A DNA stretch of 64,000 nt from IMG/VR virus record IMGVR_UViG_3300022660_003376; one strand, 5' to 3'. Both the position numbers and the translations under genes were made by a program. Below, in pieces: positions 58 through 62,558 of the stretch; position 1 is the first letter of the stretch; every line of letters starts with the position of its first letter. The notes beneath the pieces were generated by a model that was given only the letters and a program-made list of their open reading frames with translations, made no database searches and was not told where the DNA came from. This stretch comes from an uncultured virus (IMG/VR IMGVR_UViG_3300022660_003376). Taxonomy: Duplodnaviria; Heunggongvirae; Uroviricota; Caudoviricetes.

Positions 58-125
58 GTGATGAAAATGGCGCAATTCATCCCCCACCTTAGAGGTGGGG
101 GAATTCTTGCTGAAAATAGTTAAAA
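29..125 (-). mobile_element. Subterminal hairpin (probable left end) of an IS200/IS605-family element extending leftwards out of the window
   Basis: GCAATTCAT-CCCCCACCT-TAG-AGGTGGGGG-AATTCTTGC (72-110) resembles IS200/IS605 end hairpins and is followed on the minus strand by a consensus-like promoter. The exact boundary is not determined. Confidence 0.6.
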
Positions 126-718
126 ATTTAGGCAAGCCAATACATACTCAAAAAGGTGCGTATCGTGCTGACTTTCGTAAGGCAATGGGTAATAAGCGAG
201 TTGAGTTAAAGAATAAATGTTTTACATTTGGCTCTGCATTTAGCGAGGATTTTTGTACATATGTAGATGATAACTATCAGAAGGTTTCGGGGTGGCAGTT
301 AAGTACTATAATATTGCACTATGCGATGTATTATGATAGAAAGGCTCTGGAGAGCAGAAACAGATACATTCAGGCACAGAGGGACTCAGACGGATTTATG
401 TCACCACAGGTTTTCTTTATAGAGAGGTCTAGACAGACTAGCGACCCTGTAGGTGTATATGTACTGTACAATAGAACAAAGAACTTGACTTATGTGGGGC
501 AAGCCAAACGTTTATATTTCAGGGTAAATCAGCACTTGACAGGGCATGGCAACGGAGATGTTTATGCAGACTACAAAACAGGTGATGAATTCTCGGTAAA
601 GTTAATCAAGTTAAGTACTAGTGGGTATGATGATTTAAATAAGTTAGAGAAAGACACGATAAAGAATTATGGGGCTTATGAAAGGGGTTATAACAAGACA
701 AGAGGTAATAGGAGTTAG
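95..718 (+). CDS. GIY-YIG endonuclease domain protein (true start uncertain; the listed GTG lies in the IS hairpin)
   Basis: GVYVLYN...TYVGQA..L..R..QH...E...GYN motifs in the C-terminal half. Confidence 0.75.
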   Translation: MGEFLLKIVKNLGKPIHTQKGAYRADFRKAMGNKRVELKNKCFTFGSAFSEDFCTYVDDNYQKVSGWQLSTIILHYAMYYDRKALESRNRYIQAQRDSDGFMSPQVFFIERSRQTSDPVGVYVLYNRTKNLTYVGQAKRLYFRVNQHLTGHGNGDVYADYKTGDEFSVKLIKLSTSGYDDLNKLEKDTIKNYGAYERGYNKTRGNRS

Positions 719-729
719 GAGGTAAGTTT

Positions 730-1122
730 ATGGAAACTCCAGAGTATGTTATAATTGATGACTATGATACTGTACACATAACTACAAACACGAGGGTAGT
801 GCAGGTTAATACAAGGCACAAGACAGATTTAGGCGATATATCTATGTGCAAGTGTTTTGATAATTACACTTATGTATTAATACTTCACAAAGGTTTACTT
901 ATAAGTAAGTCATTATGCAGGAGTCATATTATTTCTGCTGATGCGTTATATAACTGCATTTCTTCGAGTGATATTTTAAATGATTTTACAAGCAAGCATT
1001 ATTCTTTAGATACGGATATATTGCTTGTTTCTCGCCATAATAATTTACGTAGTCGTTTGGTAACAGTAGTCAATGGTTCAACTGGAGGAGATATTTCAGA
1101 TAAGTTTAAGTTTATTTCTTAG
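730..1122 (+). CDS. Hypothetical protein
   Basis: 130-aa ORF with AGGAGG RBS. Confidence 0.7.
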   Translation: METPEYVIIDDYDTVHITTNTRVVQVNTRHKTDLGDISMCKCFDNYTYVLILHKGLLISKSLCRSHIISADALYNCISSSDILNDFTSKHYSLDTDILLVSRHNNLRSRLVTVVNGSTGGDISDKFKFIS

Positions 1123-1189
1123 TTACGCTAAAAATTTTCTTTAGATTGACTACTTTTCATGAGATGTCGCATAAGTTATATTTTATATA

Positions 1190-1810
1190 GTGTTCTTTTA
1201 ATCGTTCCGATTGAAAGAACGGGCTATCTAACTCTTTTCCTTGTTTTTTTATTATTGCTTGGTTCTTAATTGTAAGACGGCATGTTTTTAGATAGCCACT
1301 CCTAAAGTTACATTTTCTTATTTATATTTCTATTATTTGAGTGGCTGTATGTTTAGTACTAACACTGCGAATATACAGCCTATTTTCTTTTTTGGTATTA
1401 GCCTTATATTAAGGTTGATATAAATGCTAGGGATTCTCCTTTTTTGGTCTATTATATAAGTTGCTACTCCAGCAATACTTGTTTTGCTACGCCATCCCTA
1501 GTTAGCACTCGTGCGTAGCAAGACAAGTCCCTCCCATTTGTTCGGTTATGTAATTAAGTGCATAACCGAATTCCCCCGATATTAACTAAGAGTTAATATA
1601 GATATACACCTAAGGTACAATTAATATACTCATTCTTGTTTACCATGTAAATAAGTTTTCCATTGCTATGCTTGTTAGTTTCTTGTGCCTTAGTATTGAC
1701 TAGCAAGCATAGCCTCCTGTTTATGTGCGATGTCAGCTAAGTGCTGACTCAGGCATCATAATAATTAATCTATTATGGTTTCTGAGTCAACATTTAGATA
1801 CGGCATATAG
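1190..1810 (+). ncRNA. Candidate large structured non-coding RNA
   Basis: No credible ORF. At least 9 stems of 9-16 bp whose non-Watson-Crick pairs are G-U on the + strand, plus two pseudoknot pairings (see findings). Confidence 0.65.
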
Positions 1811-1831
1811 AGAATAGTGGGTGATAAACAT

Positions 1832-2335
1832 ATGTCTAATGAAATATTGCATTCAGCGTTAGTTCAGTTACATGAATTAGAAACCTTAATCAAATATGGG
1901 GTATCCTCTCAGGATTTGATAAAGGTAGTTGGCGATGTAAGCTCTAAGTTAGAAGAATATCTAGGGTACGCTTCTAGTGATACTGAGTACGCTGTTGATT
2001 TAGCGAAAATCGACAAGGGTATTACAGAAGAGATAAAGATGTGCAAGACTGTATATTCTAGGGAGTATGGCTTAGGTCTTTGCATACACAAGAATAGAAA
2101 GACACTTGTAATGCTCAAAGGGTATAAGATTGCAGAACCTAGAGAGAGTTTGTCTGAAAAATGGAAGTCTATATACAATTCTATTAGGGATAATGGTTAT
2201 ATAGACGATAATGGAAATTTAACTGCAAATATAGCTTGTTTCGGTTTTTCAGACACTGGTGTACTTTCATTAATGTATGGTTATCCACGTTCTTTGGATA
2301 TAAGACTATTAAATGAGTTATATAGCAATCTGTAG
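1832..2335 (+). CDS. Hypothetical protein
   Basis: ORF; ATG at 1832 follows GGGTG. Confidence 0.7.
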   Translation: MSNEILHSALVQLHELETLIKYGVSSQDLIKVVGDVSSKLEEYLGYASSDTEYAVDLAKIDKGITEEIKMCKTVYSREYGLGLCIHKNRKTLVMLKGYKIAEPRESLSEKWKSIYNSIRDNGYIDDNGNLTANIACFGFSDTGVLSLMYGYPRSLDIRLLNELYSNL

Positions 2336-2389
2336 TACTTTAAATTATAAAGTAGTAGATATAAAGCACAAAGAAGTAGTTATCGATTA

Positions 2390-2419
2390 TTGCTTTAGTT
2401 CTTTAATATGTGCTATAAT
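2390..2419 (+). promoter_or_regulatory. Sigma70/SigA-type promoter
   Basis: TTGCTT, 18 nt, TATAAT with TG extension. Confidence 0.55.
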
Positions 2420-2494
2420 AAGGGTGTCGAAAGGGTAGTGCACACAAACAATCGACTGAGGTAATTTAAAGTAATATGTATGGAGGTTTTTATT

Positions 2495-3202
2495 ATGCTA
2501 TATGTAAAATCAGTAAGCGAAGACAAGAAGACATTTGTGGTATGTAACTCAGAAACAAATGAGTTGACTACATTCAATCGTGAGGATTACAAGAACGATA
2601 ACTGGCAACAGATTAAGGGTGTATTTTTTGATGGTGAGGAAATATATCCTGAGGTGTTACCTTATGATGATATCAATGTATTCACTGAAGACGACAAGGC
2701 TTTACTGTTTAATTTGGCACGTAAGTTTGCGTTAAAGTTTACGAATAGACCGATTCTGTTGGGTATAACCGATTGTGGTTCAAACGATTGTATGTTTCAG
2801 AATAATACAGAGAGTTTAGAACTAAGTACTTATTTCAGAGTTAAGTCCGACTGGGTATCTGAGGCTAAAACTCCTAATGATTGCATACTTGGTGGTGTAA
2901 TCACTATAGGTCTTGAAAGAGACTTCGAAGGTTTTCAGGTTAGTCTTTCAATTGATGCTGAGATACCAAGTTGGGTATGTAATACAGTGCATAGTTATTT
3001 TAACTTTATGTTTGAAGAGAAGTTTTGCTGTGCAGATTTAGCACAGGTTTCTGACAGATTATATGCTATTGTAGATGCAATGAGTAATAAGTCAATTTTG
3101 GATGCTTCTTCGGAATGCACAAATATTGATATTCCTTATTACAGCACACCATTTAAGTCTGTTATTGATAAAGCTTCTAGTGGCTTTTTAGAAATCCGTT
3201 AA
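2495..3202 (+). CDS. Hypothetical protein with an N-terminal module resembling that of the LRR family, but a non-LRR body
   Basis: GGAGG RBS. MLYVKSVSEDKKTFVVCNS...IKGV...VLPYDDINVF resembles the LRR-family N-terminus. Confidence 0.7.
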   Translation: MLYVKSVSEDKKTFVVCNSETNELTTFNREDYKNDNWQQIKGVFFDGEEIYPEVLPYDDINVFTEDDKALLFNLARKFALKFTNRPILLGITDCGSNDCMFQNNTESLELSTYFRVKSDWVSEAKTPNDCILGGVITIGLERDFEGFQVSLSIDAEIPSWVCNTVHSYFNFMFEEKFCCADLAQVSDRLYAIVDAMSNKSILDASSECTNIDIPYYSTPFKSVIDKASSGFLEIR

Positions 3203-3330
3203 AAAATATTTTGAGATATATACAAAATCTTGAGATTTCATCTAAGACGGATTATAATAAGTGTTCTCAATTAATTTTGGGAATAGAAAAAACCAAATAC
3301 GCTGTAAAGTGTGCTTGGTAAGGGTATGTT

Positions 3331-3674
3331 ATTAACTATGTTCGCATAGTTAATATATAAAGTGCCTGCAGACTTTTTCAACCATTTTCATATTCAGTAA
3401 ATTGGTAAAGACAAGTACAAAAATTCAGAAGAATAAATACTGCCATAAAGATTAAACAATCTTACATTCGATTATTCTCAGGATTCAACTTCAAGCAATC
3501 TAAAGAATAGCCCATAAAGATTATACAATCTTACATTTCAGATTATTCTCAGAATTCAGTTCAAGATAACGGTATATTTTACATTCAAAACTCAAATTCA
3601 AAACTCAAAATAACGCAATATGCGTTTCCGAGTTAAGCTAATAAAAGTGATTCTGCAGGCACTTCACTTTTATT
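3331..3674 (+). promoter_or_regulatory. Long structured 5' leader of the SSB gene (pseudoknot plus direct repeats)
   Basis: Hairpin 3640-3650/3664-3674 whose loop region (3652-3664) is the exact reverse complement of 3360-3372; internal repeats. Confidence 0.55.
3443..3565 (+). repeat. Two imperfect ~53-nt direct repeats
   Basis: CCATAAAGATTAAACAATCTTACATTCGATTATTCTCAGGATTCAACTTCAAG (3443-3495) vs CCATAAAGATTATACAATCTTACATTTCAGATTATTCTCAGAATTCAGTTCAAG (3512-3565). Confidence 0.9.
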
Positions 3675-3702
3675 GCAAGACATCGGAGAAAGGAAGATAT
3701 TT

Positions 3703-4812
3703 ATGCTTAAAAGACCATCAGTTAAGAAACTTTCGCCAGAGGCAATTCAGGCTATAACAACTGCTTCAGCATCTCAGACAGCGAAGCGTAGTGTTGTGAA
3801 GTCAATAGACCCAAACTTCCCAGTGTTTGATATTCCAGTCAACGCTAAAGTTTTGGTTTACGTTCCAAATCATACGATTCAGACAGAAGACGGTGTTGCT
3901 ATACTTCGTGAGGATAAGTTCGCCGCACACAACGTATTAGACGGCAAGTTCAATGCAAGGGTACGTTGTACAAATGGTATCGTAAGCGATGAACTGGATT
4001 TAGACGGTTCATGCCCATTCTGTGATGCTTCACATGAAGCGTGGGATTTGTACAATTTTGAGTACAGACAGCTCTGTGCATCAAAGTTACTCGACCCAGA
4101 CGCAGAGGGAACATATGAGCAGGTTAAGAGTGATGCAATTGCACTCCGTGATAAAAAGGCTATAGGCAGTACAGTGGTATATCATACATTCCCTATAGTT
4201 GTTGTTGAATGTCAGAAGAAGCCTGACGGTACAATGACTACAACTCCTGCGGTAGATGGTAACGGCTCACCTATTCATAAGGTGTGTTGGTACACAATTT
4301 CAGATTCGCTCTTTGAAGATAGATGGGTGAAATCTCTTGATTCTATCGATTCAGACGAACCTGTAACCAGTCCAGCAGGACGTTGGTTTGTTCTTAACTA
4401 CGAATATAAGTCTGAGAGTGGCACTCATAACAAGATGATGTCTGCTCAGAAACTTCAGGTATCATGCAAGGCAATGTCAGAAAAGTGGCAGGAAGTAGAA
4501 GCTTACTTTGATAAAATCACAGAAGAGTGGACACCTGCTAAGGCAATTGAAACACTCGTGGATAACGCTTTCCGTAGCGGTGAAGAGCAGATGGAAGCTT
4601 GTAACGAAATAATGAAGGGTACAAGAGAAAGACTTGCTCAGATTAAGGTTGCAAGCCTTACAACAACAGCACCACAGGGTAGTCTTTCTGATACTGAGGA
4701 TGCACTTGCATCTTACAAGGCAACACCTGTAGGAATTGAAACAGCACAGGGTATCGCAAGTGCTGATGCTGTGGGTGTTGAACCCGAAGTACCACAGACA
4801 CCTCTGGTTTAA
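3703..4812 (+). CDS. T4 gp32-like single-stranded DNA-binding protein
   Basis: H...RCT...SCPFC zinc-site pattern followed by DLYN and YHTFPIVVV, comparable to gp32 CPVC..DLYN..YWANILVV; low-complexity acidic tail; sits next to SbcCD-like genes. ATG at 3703 follows AGGAAG. Confidence 0.65.
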   Translation: MLKRPSVKKLSPEAIQAITTASASQTAKRSVVKSIDPNFPVFDIPVNAKVLVYVPNHTIQTEDGVAILREDKFAAHNVLDGKFNARVRCTNGIVSDELDLDGSCPFCDASHEAWDLYNFEYRQLCASKLLDPDAEGTYEQVKSDAIALRDKKAIGSTVVYHTFPIVVVECQKKPDGTMTTTPAVDGNGSPIHKVCWYTISDSLFEDRWVKSLDSIDSDEPVTSPAGRWFVLNYEYKSESGTHNKMMSAQKLQVSCKAMSEKWQEVEAYFDKITEEWTPAKAIETLVDNAFRSGEEQMEACNEIMKGTRERLAQIKVASLTTTAPQGSLSDTEDALASYKATPVGIETAQGIASADAVGVEPEVPQTPLV

Positions 4813-5463: not shown

Positions 5464-5545
5464 CATGTTAGTTGTAAATAGTATGCTGATATTTTGCGTG
5501 AGTTATATTATATTAAACATAAAAATCATAAAGAAGGTGTGATAA

Positions 5546-6697
5546 ATGGGTTTTAGCAGATTATTGGCATGGGAAGTATACAACTTCATGTCGATTGAGT
5601 ACGCAAAGGTATCCTTTGATGATACTAATATAATAAATATAAAAGGCTATAACGACTCAGGTAAGAGTGCATTAAAGTGTGCTTTAGACGTATTATTCTT
5701 TAATATAAAACCGTCTTTACAGTTACGTTTCATAAAAGACGGCTGTGACTACTTTAGGGTAGTTTGTCACTTTGATGACGGTGTAATTATTCTGAGGGAT
5801 AAATACATAAACGGTCAGGGTTTGTATGAGATGTACAAAGACGGTAGGCTTGTTTATTCAACAAAGAGTGGCACTGAGTTGACAAAGATAAACGATGTTC
5901 CCGAAGTAATAAAGCAGTATTTAGGTTTAATACAGTCAGATGACTGGAATGTAAACAGTAGAAGCTGTTTTGAACAGCAGTTGCTTGTACAAACAAAGGG
6001 TAGTGAAAATTCCAGAGCGTTGAACGAAATTTTACGTTCTGAGGAGATTGCTAAAGCTGGTGAGTTACTCAACACAGACAAGAACAAGCTTAACTCCATG
6101 ATAGCAACGGTATCATCTGAATTGGACGTATATAAACGTCAGATTGCTGAAAGCAATGGCTTATCTGGCGAGATGATATCTGCTTTGAGAGAGCATGATA
6201 AAATATTGTCTGATGCAGAGGAACGTTTAGGCAAGATTGATAGCACTAAGAAGATGCTTGAAAATATCAATGCAATAAAAATTGCTCCAGAGTTAAAGTG
6301 TATTGATACTCAACAACTACAAAGACTTAACAAACTCAGGGGTATTCTCTCTGAAATAAAGTCAGTGGCAATAATGCCGAAGGTTACTTGTAAGGTTGAT
6401 GCAGGTGCGTTGAAGCTATTAAGTTCAATAAGAACGGCTTGTGAAAGCAAGAGGAAAATTGAGGCATCGATAACCCCTATCGTATCCAAGGTAGATGCTA
6501 CTCAGTTGAAGAAGCTTGCTGAGATGCGTGATATGTTAAACAGTGTTAAGCTTATTAATGCTCAAATCGAGGACTGTGATACTAAGCTTATGCAAACTAA
6601 AGCCAGCATAGAGGAATGTCAGGCAAAGCTTGCATCTGCAGGCAAGAAATTTGTTAAGTGTAAAACCTGTGGTTCTTATGTATCAGTTGACGAATAA
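5546..6697 (+). CDS. SbcC/Rad50/gp46-like ATPase, N-terminal half
   Basis: NFMSI..., Walker A GYNDSGKS, Q-loop-like region (FEQQ), coiled coil, terminal CKTC hook-like motif; no Walker B. Confidence 0.8.
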   Translation: MGFSRLLAWEVYNFMSIEYAKVSFDDTNIINIKGYNDSGKSALKCALDVLFFNIKPSLQLRFIKDGCDYFRVVCHFDDGVIILRDKYINGQGLYEMYKDGRLVYSTKSGTELTKINDVPEVIKQYLGLIQSDDWNVNSRSCFEQQLLVQTKGSENSRALNEILRSEEIAKAGELLNTDKNKLNSMIATVSSELDVYKRQIAESNGLSGEMISALREHDKILSDAEERLGKIDSTKKMLENINAIKIAPELKCIDTQQLQRLNKLRGILSEIKSVAIMPKVTCKVDAGALKLLSSIRTACESKRKIEASITPIVSKVDATQLKKLAEMRDMLNSVKLINAQIEDCDTKLMQTKASIEECQAKLASAGKKFVKCKTCGSYVSVDE

Positions 6698-7803: not shown

Positions 7804-8817
7804 ATGTACGCAAGGGTAGATGGCGGAAGTGTATTGATAATAGGCGATTTACATATTTCTGACCGTGCGTGTGTGGGTAAACACAGAGACTACATAACGA
7901 ATTGTTTCACAGTACTGCGAGACATACTTGATATGGTTAGAGAACAAAAACCGTCAGCTTTAGTATTGCTTGGTGACTTGGTAGGTACAACAGAACGAAA
8001 CATAAAGAGCCGTGAGGTTCTTGCAATGGTATGCAGATTCTTTACTGATATAAAGGCAAATGGTACGAGAATATTCTGTGTTAGAGGTAATCATGATTTT
8101 GGTGATTATCCAGACTTTCAGTTCTTTACTAGTTTGGGTTTAATCGAGACAGCAGAAAGTTGCGGTGGTTACTTTGATTACTACGGAACAAAGGATAAAA
8201 CAGTACCTGAGATACGTTTTCATTTAGTTGATTTTGGTTCTGAAACTAAGCCTTTGTTAATAGCGAGTGATGTTGCAAACGTTGTATTAGCTCATAATAA
8301 TTTCACAATACAGGGTATCACTACATGGTATAATGCTGATGGTGGCTATGAGTTGAGTAACTTAAATAACTTTAAGGATGTATATATGGTAATTGCAGGT
8401 CATATACACTCACCTAGTCCTCAGATTTTCAACACCACGATGATGTGTGGGGGTACATGCAACTTGTTCTATGTAGGCTCACCTACAAGACCAGCTGAGA
8501 CTCACGAGTCTTGTTGGGTAGTTGAGTTTAAGTATAACGAAGAAGAGCAGGATACAGACTATGACGCTAAGGAGTGGAAACTTCGTAAGGCTGAAGACAT
8601 CTTCATATTAGATGAAACTTTCATAGAGGATATGACTGAAGAAGAAATTGAAGATGCAACAAGAAAAGAGCAACTTAAGGAAGTGCTAGAGGAGATAATA
8701 ACTCACCGCATTGGAAGTACTGACTTAAAGGCTCAGATACAGAGTATCCCTAATGCTACTGATGATGCTAAGATATTGGCTTGTCAGTATATAGATTTAG
8801 CAATGAATGCAAAGTAA
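7804..8817 (+). CDS. SbcD/Mre11/gp47-like metallophosphoesterase nuclease
   Basis: GDLH, GDL, GNHD, AH, GHIH and YVGSP motifs in the canonical order. Confidence 0.88.
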   Translation: MYARVDGGSVLIIGDLHISDRACVGKHRDYITNCFTVLRDILDMVREQKPSALVLLGDLVGTTERNIKSREVLAMVCRFFTDIKANGTRIFCVRGNHDFGDYPDFQFFTSLGLIETAESCGGYFDYYGTKDKTVPEIRFHLVDFGSETKPLLIASDVANVVLAHNNFTIQGITTWYNADGGYELSNLNNFKDVYMVIAGHIHSPSPQIFNTTMMCGGTCNLFYVGSPTRPAETHESCWVVEFKYNEEEQDTDYDAKEWKLRKAEDIFILDETFIEDMTEEEIEDATRKEQLKEVLEEIITHRIGSTDLKAQIQSIPNATDDAKILACQYIDLAMNAK

Positions 8818-9505: not shown

Positions 9506-9568
9506 TCTTGATATTTTGCGTGATATCGTTTATATACTATAGTAAAAAATTTAAATCGGAGGTTAGTC

Positions 9569-16810: not shown

Positions 16811-18325
16811 ATGTATAATATATTATACATAGATTATTTTAGGGAGTCTGGTAAACAATCAGACTCTCTTATTGCTACGTATTATATGTTACAGTACAGT
16901 GGCAGATACATAACAGCTAGAGAAGAAGAGAAAGAATACGATACTATAAGATGTCAGGAGGAACAACTTATAAGCAAGATTGCTGAATTAATAAATTCGG
17001 TTTATCTTGACTTAGATACTTTATTAATACTTACAAGTCAAAATGATTTGGGAGATATGTTGAATAAGGTCAATGAGAGGTTATACATACCAGCTGATTT
17101 AAACTGGGTACGGATACAAGATTATTTGGGGTATCCTAATTATTCTTTATTTGATTTATATACACACTATTTTAGCGTTAATGAAACGCACACAAGACTG
17201 GAATTAATTGATATGTTATTGACGGGTGTAGTTAGATATAAACATGGTGCTTCTAAGGATGATATCAGTGGTTTTCTAATAATACACCCTTTAGTTCGTG
17301 GTAATTGTGCTATAATGACATTTGCATGGATTAAGTTAAGTGTAGATGGTACTTCAGAAATACTTGGTTCTGAGCAGTGCATATTACCTAACGCAGACGA
17401 TAATTATTGTCGATTAGGTTGTTTTTTCAAGCAGTTAGAGACAAGTATAACTATGTCAGGTATAACATTTGGGAGTTTGTTGCCTACATTTTATTCTGAG
17501 CAGTATTATTGCACGTATAGAAATATCATATTAAACATGGATGTGCCAGAGTTTACATCTCATAGCTATTTGCAGGATTTACTGTTATCTTGTCTGCCGA
17601 GGTATATGAGACAGTGTGTGCATAATTCATTTGCAAAGCTAATAAGGGTATTCTCAAACAAAATATCTGATGAGCATCAATTCTCGGCTATGAGGTTATG
17701 CAACATTATGCAATCGGATATTGGTTTAGCTATAAAAGACGGTGCATTAGTTACTCAGAAGCAATTTTACAAGGATTTTTCATCTGATGTTATAGCTACA
17801 GACTATAACTTACCATTTAAGTATGGTGTTATATTGGATTGTGAGGGTACTTCTACTGGTGGTTGTTCGGAGGTTGGTGGTATTATATACGGTTACAACA
17901 AATCCAAGGGTATGCTACTAAAGATTGAGACATTCTATTTCAAGCAATATGATTTCTTAGAGGGTATGCAGAGTTTAATAGAGCGTTTCGGTATTGTGTC
18001 TGGTAGACACTTTGGAAATATACCAGTTTTAACATACGGTAAAACAGACGAAATAATGCTACAGAATGAATTACATGAAAGTACATCGAGGTCATTAAGA
18101 AAGAAAATACAGAAGTCATTTATATTCTTAGATGCTCAGGATATTATAGGTGAGTATCTGGATAGTATAGATACAAGTGATTTAGGCAATAGAAAATTAT
18201 CGACAGTAGCTAAATTTGTAGGGGTACGTGTAGCCACACCGAAGCATAATGCTTTAAGTGATGCTAAGACCTTATTTAACATATTAGCTTACTTATGTTT
18301 TATTGAAAGGGAGATGAAATTATGA
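16811..18325 (+). CDS. DEDDh 3'-5' exonuclease domain protein
   Basis: C-terminal domain with ILDCEGT, TDE and HNALSDA motifs. Confidence 0.7.
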   Translation: MYNILYIDYFRESGKQSDSLIATYYMLQYSGRYITAREEEKEYDTIRCQEEQLISKIAELINSVYLDLDTLLILTSQNDLGDMLNKVNERLYIPADLNWVRIQDYLGYPNYSLFDLYTHYFSVNETHTRLELIDMLLTGVVRYKHGASKDDISGFLIIHPLVRGNCAIMTFAWIKLSVDGTSEILGSEQCILPNADDNYCRLGCFFKQLETSITMSGITFGSLLPTFYSEQYYCTYRNIILNMDVPEFTSHSYLQDLLLSCLPRYMRQCVHNSFAKLIRVFSNKISDEHQFSAMRLCNIMQSDIGLAIKDGALVTQKQFYKDFSSDVIATDYNLPFKYGVILDCEGTSTGGCSEVGGIIYGYNKSKGMLLKIETFYFKQYDFLEGMQSLIERFGIVSGRHFGNIPVLTYGKTDEIMLQNELHESTSRSLRKKIQKSFIFLDAQDIIGEYLDSIDTSDLGNRKLSTVAKFVGVRVATPKHNALSDAKTLFNILAYLCFIEREMKL

Positions 18326-19593: not shown

Positions 19594-20080
19594 CAAAAGT
19601 ATTAGTTTATTCTTGTTATATGATTCAATTATCATAAAAATTATTAATATGAAATTTCACGCATAAAATTGTTTTGAGATATAAATTTAATGCGTGATTT
19701 TTTATGTTTAAACCACAAGTATTTTTTACAGAAAATTGAGAAAATTTGATTTAGGAGATGTTCTTTACCCTATTTATTTAATATGTATTTTGATATTAAA
19801 CAGGGTGTTTTTCATAATATTTTTAAATCGAGTATGATATTTTTCTAAATTTTCTGATATTTTAGTGGGCTTGCAAAAACAGCATTTAGTCATATGATTT
19901 TATGGTTAAAATGCGTTAGTTAAAATCCGCATAAAAACATAGTATTTTATGAGTTTCCACGCTGAGTTGGATTATAAACAATATTGAAAACACTTGTAGG
20001 TGTTGTATAAAATTGATGATATTCTGCTAAGTGTTTATAAAAGTAATTAATATGGCAAGTTTTAAATGCAGGAGGTAAAA

Positions 20081-30759: not shown

Positions 30760-31361
30760 ATGCTATACTTATGCAAAGCTCATGGCGGTGATAAGTATAC
30801 TCTATTAGACACATCTAACGGACATAAGGAAGTTGTAACAAAATTAAGATTAAAACAATTAAGAGAAGTTGGCATCAAGGTTTATGGTGTTTCCAAGAAT
30901 TTCGAGGTAACAGTCTTTGAGACACCAGAGAAAATAATATCAAGTTACAAAATGCGGTGTATGTTGTGTAATATTTTTTGTCCTGAGATTAAAATAAAGT
31001 ATCTAGATAATGGAGGTTTTGATTTTACACTAAGTATAAACGGCACTGATAATGTGATATCCTCTGTTAGAATACCTGAGTTTGTAACCATGTTAAATAA
31101 AACACATTTGAGGGTATCACTGGGGTTGATACAGTTGTTATCCCAGACGGTGTAACTAAGATAGGTACAATGACATTCAATCGTTGTAGGGACTTACGCA
31201 CGGTGGTAGTTCCTAATAGTGTTACGTTAATTGAGAGTTATGCATTTAATGACTGTGATTCGTTGCGTGATATTTATATAATGAACAAGTTATCTGTTGT
31301 AGGGGTACTGAATAATGCATTTCCAAGTGGTGTACGCATAACACAGGGAGTTCCACACTAA
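30760..31361 (+). pseudogene. BspA-type LRR gene split by a 1-nt frameshift (ORFs 30760-31155 and 31170-31361)
   Basis: One extra A in the A4 run (31099-31102) restores MLNKNTFEGITGVDTVVIPDGVTKIGTMTFNRC. Confidence 0.75.
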
Positions 31362-31841
31362 AGTCTTACAAGATAGCATTTAATGCTGAGAAAAACACAG
31401 AGAAGAGACTTATCAAGTATATATTAATTTTATGTACATTTCCGTAACTATGGTTTATGTAAGTTTGAGTATAAGCCTAAGAGTTAGCTTTGATGAAACA
31501 ATATAAATAATCGGGTACTGGTTATAAATCAGCACTCCTTTTTATTTAACTAAAACAAATAATATTAGTTTATTTTATACAAATAAAGTTGTCATCATAA
31601 ACATCGATTAAACGAGTATTTAGAGGCATTTTTCGTGAGTTGAAAAAGTCGTATGCCTTAGAAAAGGCGATTTTTAAACAAGTTAAAATTTGTACCTATT
31701 TAAGAAAAGTGTTAAAAATACGCTAGATTTTCACATAAGTTTTTATATAAATTTCGGAGATTTTTTCTTTCAGTAAGTAGTATTTGTATAACTTTTAGTT
31801 GGGATTAAATAGATAAAAGGAAATGTTGAGGTGTATTAATT

Positions 31842-34015: not shown

Positions 34016-34109
34016 GAGTTTGCATTAGTTCTTTTGTATAGAATGTTTTCTTTTATTGAGTTTTCGATAAGGGCTGAGGGAGGTATTAGAATACAATTAT
34101 GGATGTACT

Positions 34110-35500
34110 TATATAGTAGCAAATAATATTTAAAATAATAAAATATATATTGAAATTTTTATAAAAGAGGTGATCTGTAAAAAATGAGTGAATTAATAAC
34201 AGCTACAAGAGTAGAAAAACATGTAATCAAATCATCATGCAGTTATTTTTCTATGCTGATGGATTTCTGCCATAAGTCTAAAAATCTGTATAATCATGCA
34301 AACTATATCATTCGTAACAAGTTTACCAAAGAAAATATTTTAGTCAGTTACGGAGAACTTGATAAAATCCTGAAAAAAGACTACGACTATCCTGATTATC
34401 AAAGCATGCCCACCGCACAGACAGCACAACAAACGTTAAGACTGCTCTGCAAGAACTGGAAATCGTTTTTTATGAGTATAAAAGACTGGAAAAAACACAA
34501 AGATAAATATCTCGGCAGACCCAAACTACCGAAATATCTTAAAAAAGACGGTCAATATATCCTTATACTTACCAATCAGAACTGCAAACTACAGAACGGA
34601 AAAATCAAGTTTCCGAAAACATTCTGCGGTTTTGAAATAACTCCTGAATTTATTAAAAACGATAATGCAGTATCATTTCAACAGGTTCGTTTTTTGCCAA
34701 GAAGAAACAGAATAGTCGTGGAAGTGGTGTACACAGTAGCTGTTTTGGAAGAAAAGCCCGATAACAACAGATATATAGGAATTGATATAGGTGTGGATAA
34801 CCTTGCTACTGTTTGCAACAACATATCAGACAATGCTTTTATTATTAACGGTAAACCATTAAAGTCAATAAACAAATACTATAACAAAAAAATCAGTCAT
34901 TATCGAGAAGTTGCAAAAAGAATGAACAATAACGATTACTCTTTAAGAATGCATAAACTAACGGTAAAACGCAATTCAAAAATAGAAGATTATCTGCACA
35001 AAGCAAGCAGATATATCGTTGATTATTGCAGAGAAAACAACATCAATACCATTGTTGTAGGCAACAACAAAGAATGGAAACAACACGCTGATATTGGTCG
35101 GAAAAATAATCAGACTTTCGTGCAGATTCCTTTTACAAGATTTATAGATATGATTCGTTACAAAGCAGAAGAATATGGTGTAGCCGTCATAGAGACCGAA
35201 GAGAGCTATACAAGCGGAACGAGTTTTATAGATAATGAAGAACCGGTAAAAGAGAATTACAATAAATCCAGAAGAGTACACAGGGGTTTATTCAGATCAA
35301 ACGAAAATAAGCTGATAAATGCAGACTTAAACGGTGCATATCAGATATTAAAGAAAGTATTCCCAATAAAATGGGATATAGGGTGTGTGTTACACCCGGT
35401 TGTAGTAAACTTGGGTTAGTCCTGGGTTGAACAATAAATAAAATATGTTTTAATAAAATTTTATATTATTTTTATTAAGTTTAATATTTTTAATAACATA
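34110..35500 (+). mobile_element. IS200/IS605-family tnpB-only (IS1341-like) element; boundaries approximate
   Basis: Solo tnpB, A/C-rich composition unlike the G/T-rich backbone, AT-rich flanks, small hairpins at the 3' end. Confidence 0.7.
34184..35419 (+). CDS. tnpB: TnpB RNA-guided endonuclease
   Basis: SKNLYN, P.LPKY, RuvC-I IGIDIGVDNL, YLHKASR, EESYTS and RuvC-III NADLNGA. Confidence 0.9.
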   Translation: MSELITATRVEKHVIKSSCSYFSMLMDFCHKSKNLYNHANYIIRNKFTKENILVSYGELDKILKKDYDYPDYQSMPTAQTAQQTLRLLCKNWKSFFMSIKDWKKHKDKYLGRPKLPKYLKKDGQYILILTNQNCKLQNGKIKFPKTFCGFEITPEFIKNDNAVSFQQVRFLPRRNRIVVEVVYTVAVLEEKPDNNRYIGIDIGVDNLATVCNNISDNAFIINGKPLKSINKYYNKKISHYREVAKRMNNNDYSLRMHKLTVKRNSKIEDYLHKASRYIVDYCRENNINTIVVGNNKEWKQHADIGRKNNQTFVQIPFTRFIDMIRYKAEEYGVAVIETEESYTSGTSFIDNEEPVKENYNKSRRVHRGLFRSNENKLINADLNGAYQILKKVFPIKWDIGCVLHPVVVNLG

Positions 35501-35576
35501 GCTTAATAGTATTAAGGAGGTAAGTATATTATGTATTTTGTTCAGGAAAAGATTAGACGACTAGTGAGGTGAGGGT

Positions 35577-37657: not shown

Positions 37658-38641
37658 ATGGCTGGTTCGGGGAATAAAAGTTTGAGTAAGGCTAGAGTCA
37701 CTAAGGATGATGAGTTTTACACACAAATCAGGGATATTGAGAATGAATTAAGACACTATAAAGACAGTCTTAAGGATGCAGTTATATTTTGTAATTGTGA
37801 TGACCCAGAGTACTCAAATTTCTGGAAGTACTTTCATTTAAATTTTGAGTTCTTAGGTCTTAAGAAGTTAATTACAACACATTTTGATGCGAAAGAGCCT
37901 ACATACAAGATGGAGTATGAGGGTGGAGATGACTCAAATGTTTCTGCAGGAGTAGTTACTCCCTTACGTCAGAACGGTGACTTTAGGAGTGAGGAGTGTA
38001 TTGAACTTCTTAAAGAAGCGACTATTGTTGTAACAAATCCGCCTTTTTCATTATTCCGAGAGTACGTTGCTCAGTTAATAGAGTATGATAAGCAGTTTAT
38101 AATCATAGGTAATCAGAACGCTATGACAGGTAAGGAAATATTCTCTTTAATACGCTCAAATCGTATGTGGCTTGGGTATCATTCGGGCGACATGGCGTTC
38201 CGTGTTCCTGCAGACAGCGAACCTAGGGAAACACGTTTTTGGGTAGACGAGACAGGTCAGAAATGGCGTTCTTTAGGCAATGCTTGTTGGTATACAAATA
38301 TTGATATATCCAAAAGACATGAACCTCTTGATTTAATAGAGAGATATGATGCGGAGAAGTATCCTAAGTTTGATAACTATGATGCAATCAACGTAAACAA
38401 GACTTTATCAATACCATGTGATTACTATGGTGTTATGGGAGTACCCGTTACGATGTTGCAATATCACTGTCCAGAGCAGTTTGAGATTATAGGTCATACG
38501 CATTCTGGAGATGATGATGAACGTGTTGAAGCTTTAAGGACAGATGAGAAAAATCGTCACAGGGGCTTGGTAAATGGAAAGCAGATTTATGATAGAATTT
38601 TAATAAGACGAAAGGATGGTAGTCAGGATGCAAATAGTTAA
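37658..38641 (+). CDS. Adenine-specific DNA methyltransferase, EcoRI-like family
   Basis: DDEFYT, CNCDDP..SNF, GDFRS.EC and catalytic VVTNPPFSLFR. Confidence 0.88.
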   Translation: MAGSGNKSLSKARVTKDDEFYTQIRDIENELRHYKDSLKDAVIFCNCDDPEYSNFWKYFHLNFEFLGLKKLITTHFDAKEPTYKMEYEGGDDSNVSAGVVTPLRQNGDFRSEECIELLKEATIVVTNPPFSLFREYVAQLIEYDKQFIIIGNQNAMTGKEIFSLIRSNRMWLGYHSGDMAFRVPADSEPRETRFWVDETGQKWRSLGNACWYTNIDISKRHEPLDLIERYDAEKYPKFDNYDAINVNKTLSIPCDYYGVMGVPVTMLQYHCPEQFEIIGHTHSGDDDERVEALRTDEKNRHRGLVNGKQIYDRILIRRKDGSQDANS

Positions 38642-39737
38642 AACACAGATTAAAATACGTGACCTTATAAAAGGATATGTAGATGATAAGCAAACAGGCA
38701 GGGTATCTGGTTATGACGGAAAACTCGATATAAGACCAGCGTATCAGCGTGAGTTTGTATACAAGGATAAACAGCGTGATGCAGTAATAGATACAATTGC
38801 AAAAGGTTTTCCATTAAACATAATATATTGGGCTAAAACAGGTGAGGATACTTTTGAGGTATTGGATGGTCAGCAGAGAACAATATCTATATGTCAATAC
38901 TGTAATGGTGAATTTAGTATAAACTTTAGGTATTTTCATAACTTAACGCAAGGCGAGAAAGATGCGATATTAGATTATCAGTTGGATGTATATCAATGTG
39001 AGGGTACTGATATAGAGAAGCTTGAGTGGTTTAAGATAATAAATATTGCAGGAGAGCGTTTATACGACCAAGAGTTAAGGAATGCTGTATATTCAGGCAA
39101 GTGGTTATCAGATGCAAAACGCAAATTCTCTGCAAGAAACTGTGCAGCGGAGCGTTTAGCTAAGAATTATATGAGAGGTACATCTATAAGACAGGACTAT
39201 TTAGAGTCGGTACTATACTGGATATCCTCAAAAGAGGGTACTACTATTGAAGACTATATGGCGAAGCATCAATTAGACGATAATTCAGGTGCGTTGTGGA
39301 CATATTTCACACAGGTTATTGCGTGGTTGCAGTCGATTTTCACTGAGTATCGCAGTGAAATGAAAGGCGTTGAGTGGGGCTTGCTATTCAATGAGTTTGG
39401 GGATAAATACCCTGATACTGCCGAGACTGAGGAAAAGATAAAGAAGTTAATGATGGATGACGATGTAACTGCAAAGAAAGGTATCTATGAGTATATACTT
39501 TCTGGCAGGGAGAAAGTTTTATCGATAAGGGCATTTACTGCTGGTATGAAACGTGAAGCATACGAGAGGCAGGGACATAAATGCCCTTATTGTACTAATG
39601 ACGGTATAGACAAGGAATGGCTCTTAGAGGAGATGGAGGGCGACCATATAACTCCGTGGCATGAAGGCGGTAAGACTATAGCAAGCAATTGTATGATGTT
39701 ATGTAAGGCACATAATAGACAAAAGGGTGGTCGTTGA
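38628..39737 (+). CDS. DUF262 (GmrSD N-terminal-like) plus HNH endonuclease
   Basis: IRPAYQREFVY, EVLDGQQR, F..IN; C-terminal CPYC...DHITPW..GG.T...N...LC..HN. Alternative start at 38616. Confidence 0.85.
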   Translation: MQIVKTQIKIRDLIKGYVDDKQTGRVSGYDGKLDIRPAYQREFVYKDKQRDAVIDTIAKGFPLNIIYWAKTGEDTFEVLDGQQRTISICQYCNGEFSINFRYFHNLTQGEKDAILDYQLDVYQCEGTDIEKLEWFKIINIAGERLYDQELRNAVYSGKWLSDAKRKFSARNCAAERLAKNYMRGTSIRQDYLESVLYWISSKEGTTIEDYMAKHQLDDNSGALWTYFTQVIAWLQSIFTEYRSEMKGVEWGLLFNEFGDKYPDTAETEEKIKKLMMDDDVTAKKGIYEYILSGREKVLSIRAFTAGMKREAYERQGHKCPYCTNDGIDKEWLLEEMEGDHITPWHEGGKTIASNCMMLCKAHNRQKGGR

Positions 39738-47566: not shown

Positions 47567-48026
47567 GTACAAATTGGGGTACTAATTAACTGAAATTGCT
47601 TAACTAGAGACAGACTGTCAAAAAGCAGACATAGTTTTGCTATGCTAGTCGTGACTTTTTCAATCAATTAGTTTTATGGGTTTTGACTATTAAACAGAGT
47701 AAAAAAGCATGATATTGAGCAAATTTTACGAGATAACCTGCACTTGTAGGTTCTTATGTGCAGGTTTTTAAATTGTATTTTTCAAATTTAAATTTTATAA
47801 TACTGCATTAAACTACATTAGTTTATGTAAACTTTAAATATAAATATTTATAAGATATTATTAAAGTATTATATGCTTCTGTTATCCAAGAGGACAGTAA
47901 AATAGACGTAAGCAACTCAAGGGGTAGCTCAACATCATATACAACTGTTGTTGAGGCAGAAGCAATCAGTAGACCTGTTTTTTGGTTTATGTGGAAACGA
48001 TAATATATTTATGTAGGAGGTCTAAT

Positions 48027-61896: not shown

Positions 61897-61902
61897 CATA
61901 TT

Positions 61903-62202
61903 ATGTCGGTACGTAGTTATATCAAGAGAGCAGATGAATATTATCAAGAAATAAACTATAATGCTTTAGATTTTGAGGCGTTAATAGGCACATCAAAGGA
62001 TAAAAGTTTAAGAATACAGACTCCAGATGGTTTCTGTATATATGCAAACCCAGACGCTAACGGTGAGTCAATGGGGCATACTGTTGATATAACTGGCGTA
62101 TTGAGGTTTTGGTATGGTACTTTCATAATAACGAAGGAGACTGGCGAGGTTTTGCAGGATATGTCGGAGACAGACCTACATAATTTTGCGATGGCTTCGT
62201 AG
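61903..62202 (+). CDS. Hypothetical protein (possibly DUF3846-like)
   Basis: AGGAGG RBS; IYAN.D...YGTFIITK pattern. The family call is weak. Confidence 0.6.
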   Translation: MSVRSYIKRADEYYQEINYNALDFEALIGTSKDKSLRIQTPDGFCIYANPDANGESMGHTVDITGVLRFWYGTFIITKETGEVLQDMSETDLHNFAMAS

Positions 62203-62218
62203 TGTTGGAGGTGGTATA

Positions 62219-62479
62219 ATGCAGTCACAAAACCCTTATAGGATACTTGGGGTATCTGAGGGTGCTAGTTTGGCGGAGTGCAAGAGTGCATATAAGAAGA
62301 GGATGCGAGAGCGTCATCCAGACTTCGGTAAGTCTGAGGATGATATAAAACAACGTGAGATTGACTCAAAGCTTTTGAATGAGGCTATGAGTATAATAGC
62401 ACAAAGGTTTAAGTCAGGGGTAAAACCTGTTTCTCGTCAAACTACATTTACACACAAGGATTTGTTCACGTTTATGTAA
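62219..62479 (+). CDS. Small J-domain (DnaJ-like) protein
   Basis: NPYRILGV..GAS..ECKSAYKK....HPD...KLLNEA. Confidence 0.85.
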   Translation: MQSQNPYRILGVSEGASLAECKSAYKKRMRERHPDFGKSEDDIKQREIDSKLLNEAMSIIAQRFKSGVKPVSRQTTFTHKDLFTFM

Positions 62480-62558
62480 TAACTATCTCGTGAGATTTCA
62501 CGTTAGTTAATATATAATAAATATAAAATATATTTTTAAAATTAAAGGAGAAGATATT

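Follow-up and report, generated by a model that had tools for sequence, protein, structure and literature searches.

A strongly folded non-coding region with two pseudoknot modules in an uncultured phage-like element, tentatively read as a composite leader RNA

The record IMGVR_UViG_3300022660_003376 of IMG/VR, assigned to an uncultured virus of the Caudoviricetes, supplied the 64,000 nt of DNA analysed here (the window; all positions are counted from its first letter). Between the open reading frame (ORF) at 730-1122 and the ATG at 1832 lies a non-coding stretch of 709 nt (1123-1831), in which an inspection of the letters had discerned a candidate ornate RNA of ~620 nt with two similar pseudoknot modules (the original prediction). 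The question that the locus raises is what such a stretch is: one large RNA, a set of signals read on DNA, or the leader of the genes that follow. The structure is well supported at this single locus, and the reading favoured here, tentatively and with a confidence that stays somewhat below even, is that ~1189-1831 is a modular plus-strand RNA, the composite cis-acting leader of the downstream gene block.

A folded non-coding stretch and its reading strand

No ORF of at least 40 aa under code 11 is present in 1123-1831, and neither the reading of TAG as glutamine nor translation table 4 opened a convincing frame in the region. A 36-aa ORF at 1159 was rejected, as its ATG is lost (1161 G>A) in all three of the diverged contigs that cover it. 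On the minus strand of 1593-1720, the C-rich tails of the hairpins resemble GGAGG sites with mini-ORFs of 5-7 codons behind them, and a 37-aa ORF running from 1706 to 1593 has a TTG start 6 nt after AGGAGG. These minus-strand mini-ORFs were judged incidental, given that A·C mismatches appear in the stems when that strand is read and that all genes lie on the plus strand.

All ten stems of the original prediction are present in the sequence at the coordinates given (Table 1). Folded as RNA, the plus strand reaches -212.9 kcal/mol (z -10.3), a value that none of 20 shuffles equalled, in line with the expectation that it would fold better than shuffled controls; the minus strand reaches -165.5 kcal/mol (z -6.8). 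Across the whole window, the two 150-nt segments that fold most stably, at 1426 and 1651, coincide with the two modules built on 16-bp stems, and 5 of the window's 15 plus-strand hairpins with at least 12 uninterrupted bp (no more than two G·U) fall within 1123-1831, which is 1.1% of the 64 kb. Other long gaps (3203-3672, 19594-20065, 31156-31841, and 47567-47981) show modest plus-strand folding, with z from -1.8 to -4.4. Fold energy or z-score alone is nevertheless weak evidence, because the plus strand is favoured throughout the window and the coding stretch 61897-62558 also reaches z -6 to -10 on the plus strand. In this coding stretch, which looks empty when only ORFs of at least 100 aa are listed, lie two small ORFs that start near 61904 and 62219 and have GGAGG sites; the second looks J-domain-like by eye.

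The mismatches within the stems are more telling of strand. With a strand-neutral hairpin finder, which weighs every kind of mismatch equally, the internal single mismatches of the main stems comprise seven G·T, one A·C (in H10), and no others, whereas G·T accounts for 183 of the 882 mismatches among 532 background hairpins. The G-U bias noted at first sight thus persists under an unbiased count, and because of it the stems are read on the plus strand, either as RNA or as single-stranded DNA. The original prediction had gone further, setting a plus-strand RNA against DNA cruciforms; the plus strand is borne out by the mismatches and by the natural variants, while for RNA rather than single-stranded DNA we infer the answer from the considerations set out below.

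Duplicated pseudoknot modules and natural variants

In both modules, the loop of the 16-bp stem pairs with an upstream segment, as had been proposed. Pseudoknot A joins 1426-1434 to the H5 loop at 1494-1502 through 9 bp, a score matched by 9 of 1000 shuffled loops, and pseudoknot B joins 1610-1620 to the H9 loop at 1683-1693 through 11 bp, matched by 0 of 1000. Among 61 other hairpins of the window, scores of at least 18 occur in seven, module A's score of 21 in two, and module B's score of 25 in none; one of the two hairpins scoring 21 (at 1353) is the stem of H3 found again. A third pseudoknot at H3 is not significant (717 of 1000 shuffles were as good).

The modules, ~185 nt apart and strongly diverged, share their geometry: the distance from the 5' pseudoknot strand to the 16-bp stem is 42 nt in A and 44 nt in B, the loop pairing begins 2-3 nt into the loop, and a CCUCC-like tail follows. 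Since MAFFT put the modules out of structural register, pairs were counted by script instead. Of the 16 pairs in H5 and H9, seven are identical and form a core in register, six are changed on both sides, three differ as Watson-Crick against G·U, and none is broken. The pseudoknot strands, CTAGGG/CCCTAG in A and CTAAGG/CCTTAG in B, differ by a compensated change, and a local alignment pairs 1433-1561 with 1626-1744 (p ~0.02, 200 shuffles). Judging from these letters, A and B look like diverged tandem duplicates, because they have in common the 7-bp core, the pseudoknot strands, the tail, and the local alignment. The recurrence of one pseudoknot architecture thus stands, but the original description of the two copies as unrelated in sequence does not. 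In addition, 1382-1420 resembles 1433-1466 (p ~0.025), and S2, H3, and H9 begin, by eye, with the same words GGCT(A/G)T...A(T/C)AGCC. Although the alignment of these words is not significant, their recurrence suggests that S2 and H3 may be further, older copies of the module.

Natural variation offers a further view of the same fold. Contigs from four runs were compared with the window over 900-2400; those designated X8, X10, and X11, which come from three studies at depths of 5.8-10.7, share most of their differences and represent one or two lineages ~4% away. Over 1123-1622, there are 26 substitutions, 11 of which fall on paired bases. Eight of these 11 keep the plus-strand pair when set against the reference partner, and seven of 11 when read within the haplotype, where 1208 C>T accompanies 1204 G>C and opens the loop-closing pair of H1. 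Elsewhere in H1, 1203 C>T turns C-G into U·G, 1213 G>A turns U·G into U-A, and 1220 C>T turns G-C into G·U; comparable exchanges are seen in S2 (1231 A>G, A-U to G·U), H3 (1351 G>A, G·U to A-U), H6 (1560 G>A, U·G to U-A), and pseudoknot B (1616 T>C, U·G to C-G). The changes 1355 A>G and 1368 C>T together convert an A·C opposition into G·U, thereby extending H3 by one pair, and 1559 T>C opens the loop-closing pair of H6. The three broken pairs all lie at helix ends (1204, 1559, and 1620, the last an A>T change), and no internal pair is broken. When the same substitutions were re-dealt over like bases, a mean of 7.2 pairs was disrupted, 6.1 of them internal, which gives P 0.033 for three or fewer disruptions and P 0.0008 for no internal one. 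Read on the minus strand, 6 of the same 11 substitutions break a pair.

Conservation is also apparent at the level of whole segments. In X11, the non-coding part differs at 27 of 680 positions (4.0%), a rate not above that of the flanking ORF pieces (13/223 and 18/476). Two blocks are free of substitutions, 1232-1350 (119 nt; three covering contigs) and 1384-1447 (64 nt), and towards the 3' end there is one substitution in 1623-1802 (180 nt) in X11 and two in 1623-1773 in X16. Indels among the diverged contigs are few and of a single base.

Because strand asymmetry alone is compatible with DNA as well as RNA, an element acting as single-stranded DNA has to be weighed, in which the hairpins would form on the unwound plus strand, as the lagging-strand template, and serve as a priming or primosome signal or as part of an origin. 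Under DNA parameters, the plus strand reaches -88.3 kcal/mol (z -10.5), and of all DNA mismatches G·T is the one tolerated best; loops of 3 nt, which DNA favours, occur in four hairpins; the plus strand is G-rich, of the leading type, throughout the window; and the region heads a block with SbcC- and SbcD-like genes and a DnaQ-like exonuclease lead. Yet the minus strand folds nearly as well as DNA (-84.7 kcal/mol, z -5.2), so that the asymmetry in mismatch type and in variants would require a strand-specific reader. There are neither iterons nor direct repeats, and the cumulative GC skew rises steadily across the sampled window without a turn. Moreover, the single-strand initiation signals known so far have 1-3 hairpins rather than ~12 over 640 nt, and loop-to-upstream pseudoknots and exposed words resembling the anti-Shine-Dalgarno (anti-SD) sequence have no known role in DNA. 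A single-stranded DNA element is consequently regarded as quite unlikely.

Even less credit, to the point of being extremely unlikely, is given to an origin outside functional RNA altogether, be it as double-stranded DNA palindromes (protein sites or template-switch products), the relic of a mobile element, or a self-splicing intron. Perfect stems with many short loops would suit such an origin, as would the GIY-YIG gene upstream, a weak DUF4357-like lead in the ORF downstream, and a TnpB gene elsewhere in the window; it is contradicted by the strand-specific, pairing-keeping mismatches and variants, and by the lack of an intron match, a split gene, a second copy in the window, and tandem repeats. 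By blastn, only chance matches of 12-20 nt occur elsewhere in the window, the TnpB element included. A miniature inverted-repeat transposable element (MITE), an IS200/IS605-derived element (PATE), and a TnpB guide RNA were rejected, as no window copy or similarity to the TnpB ends was found. Tandem Repeats Finder detected no tandem array in 1000-2000, and a type III antitoxin (ToxI-like) array was rejected on the same ground, together with the distance and divergence of the modules.

A group I or II intron, or a GIY-YIG/DUF4357 gene split by the region, was likewise rejected. GIY-YIG and DUF4357 domains are often fused in bacterial nucleases, but Pfam gives no confirmation of the DUF4357-like lead, and no intron model matches. 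A profile search among 1.84 billion representatives returned three relatives of the downstream ORF (P0002 at 52% identity, P0003, and P0004), which are 164-167 aa long, match end to end, and stand alone; there is no longer fused form. With all three standing alone, nothing points to a split gene, and the alignment with P0002 backs the ATG at 1832. The cluster of this ORF is present on contigs of up to 168 kb.

Table 1. Predicted elements of the non-coding stretch and adjoining genes, with window coordinates
Feature	Position	Strand	Description or basis
GIY-YIG ORF	95-718	+	GIY-YIG domain C-terminal
ORF 730-1122	730-1122	+	directly upstream of the non-coding stretch; own GGAGG site
Promoter-like site, weak sigma-70-type (TTTTCA, 17 nt, TATATT)	1154-1182	+	9/12 consensus matches
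H1, 14 bp (2 G·U), 3-nt loop	1191-1204/1208-1221	+	sequence, fold
S2, 10-bp Watson-Crick closing stem	1222-1231/1288-1297	+	sequence, fold
Alternative 8-bp Watson-Crick pairing	1294-1301/1339-1346	+	antiterminator candidate
Exposed ACUCCU	1298-1303	+	directly 3' of S2
H3, 12 bp, 14-nt loop	1343-1354/1369-1380	+	terminator-like unit spans 1343-1395
H4, 12 bp (3 G·U), 3-nt loop	1395-1406/1410-1421	+	sequence, fold
Module A	1426-1535	+	pseudoknot 5' strand 1426-1434; small hairpin 1460-1476 (loop ACUCC); H5; tail
H5, 16 bp (module A)	1477-1492/1513-1528	+	CCCUCCC tail 1529-1535
H6, rod hairpin, 13 bp	1540-1552/1559-1571	+	sequence, fold
Exposed UUCCCCC	1571-1577	+	between H6 and H7
H7, rod hairpin, 9 bp	1579-1587/1591-1599	+	sequence, fold
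Module B	1610-1718	+	pseudoknot 5' strand 1610-1620; small hairpin H8; H9; tail
H8, small hairpin (module B)	1635-1643/1647-1655	+	sequence
H9, 16 bp (module B)	1665-1680/1698-1713	+	CCUCCU tail 1713-1718
H10, long and irregular, with arms of 27 nt (81% complementary) around a 7-nt loop	1737-1763/1771-1797	+	sequence, fold
CU-rich exposed sites (7)	ACUCCU 1298, CUCCUUU 1436, ACUCC 1466, UCCCU 1495, CCCUCCC 1529, UCCCCC 1572, CCUCCU 1713	+	sequence
Shine-Dalgarno-like GGGUGAU and ATG 1832	1819-1834	+	sequence
Downstream ORF, 167 aa	1832-2335	+	ATG at 1832
SbcC- and SbcD-like genes	5546-6697, 7804-8817	+	recognisable genes

A putative switch, exposed C-rich strands, and the leader reading

As a leader, 1189-1831 would be transcribed on the plus strand, like every gene of the window, and left untranslated, and it would serve ORF 1832 and the replication and recombination genes after it. 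If the promoter-like site acts as such, the RNA would start near 1189, which would make H1 its 5'-terminal hairpin. The RNA may have grown partly by tandem duplication of the hairpin-pseudoknot unit. It is probably a composite of modules rather than one ornate RNA, and this is preferred to a globular molecule because the region is a string of long, near-perfect hairpins, has H3 and its U tract at mid-length, and lacks a terminator at its 3' end. The non-coding, strongly folded character claimed in the original prediction thus holds, but the picture of a single ornate RNA gives way to a hairpin string with a terminator-like unit in mid-region.

Three parts, in order, are envisaged for this composite leader. 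H1, at the 5' end and stacked on the S2 domain, would guard the end; S2 abuts H1 without a linker, and its 56-nt interior is U-rich and weakly structured. S2, the alternative helix, and H3 would then act as anti-antiterminator, antiterminator, and terminator, respectively. The competing pairing that had been proposed here exists in full, and it shares bases with the 3' strand of S2 and with the opening 4 nt of H3, so that it excludes both. When forced, it yields -42.9 kcal/mol, against -48.9 kcal/mol for S2 plus H3; because the latter is the ground state, the layout would be one of termination by default, with read-through needing a factor. H3 begins at its base with G-C, G-C, and C-G and is followed by 11 U in 13 nt; together with this U tract, it conforms to the definition of an intrinsic terminator and is a predicted terminator-like unit, similar to the terminators after other genes of the element. 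A terminator scan had passed over it, as the scan's loop limit was 8 nt and the loop of H3 has 14 nt.

As the third part, the two pseudoknot modules, with H4, H6, H7, H8, and H10, would form a nuclease-resistant scaffold that ties up nearly all G and exposes U- and C-rich strands, including six or seven CUCC, UCCC, and CCUCC motifs, which might be contact sites for messenger RNA, the ribosome, or a protein. Of 190 confidently unpaired bases, only 12 are G, against 94 U and 39 C. Four of the seven CU-rich sites lie directly 3' of a large hairpin, and for five the mean unpaired probability is 0.74 or more. The density of CTCC is 7.05 per kb in the region compared with 0.55 in the rest of the window, and that of TCCC 5.6 compared with 0.55, while GGAG, GAGG, and AGGA do not occur at all in the 709 nt. 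The C-rich sites complement the ribosome-binding sites (GGAGG) of the element, with predicted duplexes of -4.4 to -12.7 kcal/mol against a GGAGG-type site. H10, which has one G·T and one A·C as internal mismatches, is placed just 5' of the next gene's ribosome-binding site.

The same sites raise the possibility of a trans-acting regulatory or sponge RNA, either the plus-strand RNA as a whole or a ~200-nt piece from 1189 to the H3 terminator, whose stable hairpins would present C-rich words as anti-SD seeds to the GGAGG sites of host or phage messenger RNAs. RsaE/RoxS small RNAs of the Bacillota are known to pair with GGAGG ribosome-binding sites through C-rich loops. Likewise, RNAIII of Staphylococcus offers a precedent for a trans-acting RNA with anti-SD C-rich loops, according to the account in PMC2837412. 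The six or seven motifs are mostly unpaired, lie 3' of large hairpins or in loops, and form the duplexes just described with the site that the genes here use; the 709 nt contain no Shine-Dalgarno-like word, and H3 could terminate a discrete small RNA. The difficulty is that any C-rich word pairs with GGAGG, and the enrichment, corrected for composition, shrinks to about two-fold; modules A and B are not followed by a terminator, and the Rfam models of RNAIII and RsaE are unmatched. A trans-acting RNA is thus unlikely, albeit the strongest of the alternatives. Bolder still, and something of a long shot, is the notion of a new phage RNA in the form of a ~640-nt chain of nuclease-proof rods whose CCUCC-like tails mimic the 3' end of 16S rRNA; if true, it would soak up Shine-Dalgarno sequences of host or phage messengers, or factors recognising the anti-SD tail, and reprogram translation during infection.

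The strength and placement of the helices also accord with an array for processing or stability of the RNase III type, in which helices would be sites for cutting or protecting a polycistronic transcript between the upstream cassette (the GIY-YIG ORF and ORF 730-1122) and the genes downstream, and would set half-lives. The region lies between co-oriented gene groups with no strong promoter between them, and it includes two conserved 16-bp helices with a shared core, in addition to the 27-bp irregular H10. However, some 12 helices and two pseudoknots exceed the needs of processing, a helix of 16 bp is short by the standard of classical RNase III sites, and the C-rich tails and the terminator-like H3 would go unexplained, all of which makes this proposal distinctly improbable.

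Several observations weigh against the composite leader as well. The promoter-like site is weak (9/12), with 15 such sites in 600-4000 where 16.7 are expected, and the region contains no phage-type promoter motif. At the other end, no terminator stands between H10 and ORF 1832, which leaves the region without one at its 3' end. Globular functional RNAs seldom have perfect helices of 12-16 bp closed by 3-nt loops. By composition, plus-strand RNA folds better across the window (mean -29.7 compared with -21.0 kcal/mol per 150 nt), and the modelled DNA fold makes the plus strand just as exceptional as the RNA fold does. Composition alone predicts an estimated 3-4 C-rich sites, so that the enrichment is about two-fold, not ten-fold as in the comparison with the G-rich coding sequence. 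The covariation comes from two internal copies and from one or two diverged lineages; the pair-by-pair variant test stopped at 1622 and hence did not cover module B site by site, and the division into internal and terminal pairs in the permutation test was chosen after the data had been seen. Finally, no homologue has been aligned beyond close strains.

The carrier element, its relatives, and comparable RNAs

All 55 ORFs of at least 100 aa taken from the window's ORF list are on the plus strand. Gene starts have strong GGAGG sites, and some gaps have consensus TTGACA/TATAAT promoters, because of which we infer a host of the Bacillota type. Animal gut and faeces (bovine, sheep, and other animals) are the source of the 24 runs, all of DNA, that contain the stretch. 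No capsid or terminase gene was recognised in the window, yet it is plausible that the carrier is a phage. ARAGORN found no tRNA or tmRNA gene in the 64 kb.

Around the region, a GC-rich hairpin of 8 bp at 81-101 (CCCCCACC / GGTGGGGG) overlaps the GTG assigned as the start of ORF 95-718, which may in fact begin further downstream. A 15-nt motif, TGATATTTTGCGTGA, recurs in gaps 5' of genes at 5487-5501 and 9509-9523, with looser copies at 31256, 54635, and 61140; there are 10 matches with three or fewer mismatches against 3.2 expected, none of them in 1123-1831. The motif probably supplies the -35 box and spacer of a promoter specific to the element.

Further into the window, the C-terminal part of the 504-aa ORF at 16811-18325 gives a lead to a DnaQ-like 3'-5' exonuclease (Atlas score 0.91; structural TM 0.6-0.7, depending on the target), which supports a replication and recombination module in the first 20 kb. 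About 30 consecutive plus-strand ORFs with BspA-type leucine-rich repeats (Pfam LRR_5; PHROGs 35892 and 18805) extend over 14094-54451, an array of paralogues that is unusually large for a phage-like element. Within this array sits the TnpB gene at 34184-35419 (OrfB_IS605 and a Cas12f1-like TNB domain; flanks 34016-34183 and 35420-35576). Also present, at 37658-39737, is a gene for an EcoRI-type adenine methyltransferase immediately 5' of a GmrSD_N/HNH nuclease gene, which may form a pair for self-protection and against modified DNA.

Rfam includes profiles for ROOL, GOLLD, and OLE, as described in PMC12286853. Scanned with cmscan and Rfam 15 at the gathering score, the whole window gave no match, and at E up to 10 the segments 1000-2000 and 600-2400 gave only noise of the microRNA and snoRNA type, chiefly on H10; the models of ROOL, GOLLD, RNAIII, RsaE, group I and II introns, and known aptamers were unmatched in Rfam. 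The region therefore belongs to no catalogued RNA family, and the novelty that the original prediction had left to an Rfam search is upheld. No relative was found among 50,697 GenBank phages, whether by blastn of 1100-1900 or by tblastn of two window proteins, nor among GTDB genome contigs. IMG/VR scans with four neighbouring proteins gave no usable relative, only one weak match of 33 residues, and a scan for the exact H9 arms found nothing usable there; a degenerate module pattern hit 39 IMG/VR loci, but no module-type extended stem was seen at any of them, and all were judged to be chance. In JGI metagenomes, a search with the protein alignment gave nothing usable, and a 20-mer of module B gave one locus sharing only those 20 bases. 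A large IMG/VR screen for structured phage RNAs has been published (PMC10690425), but a listing of this region in that catalogue appears unlikely, because the IMG/VR scans made here gave no trace of the lineage. No description of such an element was found in the literature, which is itself weak evidence of absence.

Among known systems, ROOL and GOLLD come to mind first; PMC12286853 describes them as phage or prophage RNAs with multiple pseudoknots, often near tRNA islands. A stand-alone ornate RNA of this kind, globular or self-assembling and ~620 nt long, would agree with the size of several hundred nt, the phage-like carrier, and the two pseudoknots. The gut origin fits too, as ROOL is reported to have been first found in rumen samples. 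Unlike ROOL and GOLLD, though, the region matches no covariance model even at E up to 10 and has no tRNA genes nearby (a location that is typical of them, not strictly defining). It is also a chain of near-perfect hairpins, beads on a string without multi-way junctions, with a terminator-like unit in the middle, and its distribution is narrow, confined to close strains. Membership of this class is accordingly very unlikely.

The resemblance to Staphylococcus aureus RNAIII and to RsaE/RoxS, namely a series of hairpins and unpaired C-rich anti-SD motifs in a host that uses GGAGG, is functional only: there is no similarity in sequence or model, the motifs lie mostly in linkers 3' of hairpins, and no peptide is encoded. 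Early RNA of phage T7 and of the Bacillus phage SP82 contains RNase III processing hairpins, which are likewise strong helices between co-oriented phage genes; the present region differs from them in having far more helices, pseudoknots, perfect 16-bp stems that lack the customary internal loops, and C-rich tails. A layout like that of the proposed leader is found in transcription attenuators controlled by a riboswitch or a protein, in which the counterparts of S2, the overlapping alternative helix, and the terminator hairpin with its U tract follow one another in the same classical order. In contrast to known attenuators, the region matches no aptamer, and the interior of S2 is U-rich and weakly structured.

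Should the region turn out to be no more than a spacer for processing or stability, it would be an ordinary, though unusually elaborate, example. Few RNAs are understood as poorly as ROOL and GOLLD, and the long modular leaders of early phage operons have hardly been catalogued. In this case, the internal duplication amounts to a natural covariation experiment that backs a defined fold, including two pseudoknots. As the lineage has no relatives in the collections searched, comparative screens that need many homologues would miss such an RNA. The region bears on how phages of Gram-positive hosts gate and protect long leaders, on whether repeated anti-SD-like sites steer translation, and on the growth of new structured RNAs by duplication of modules.

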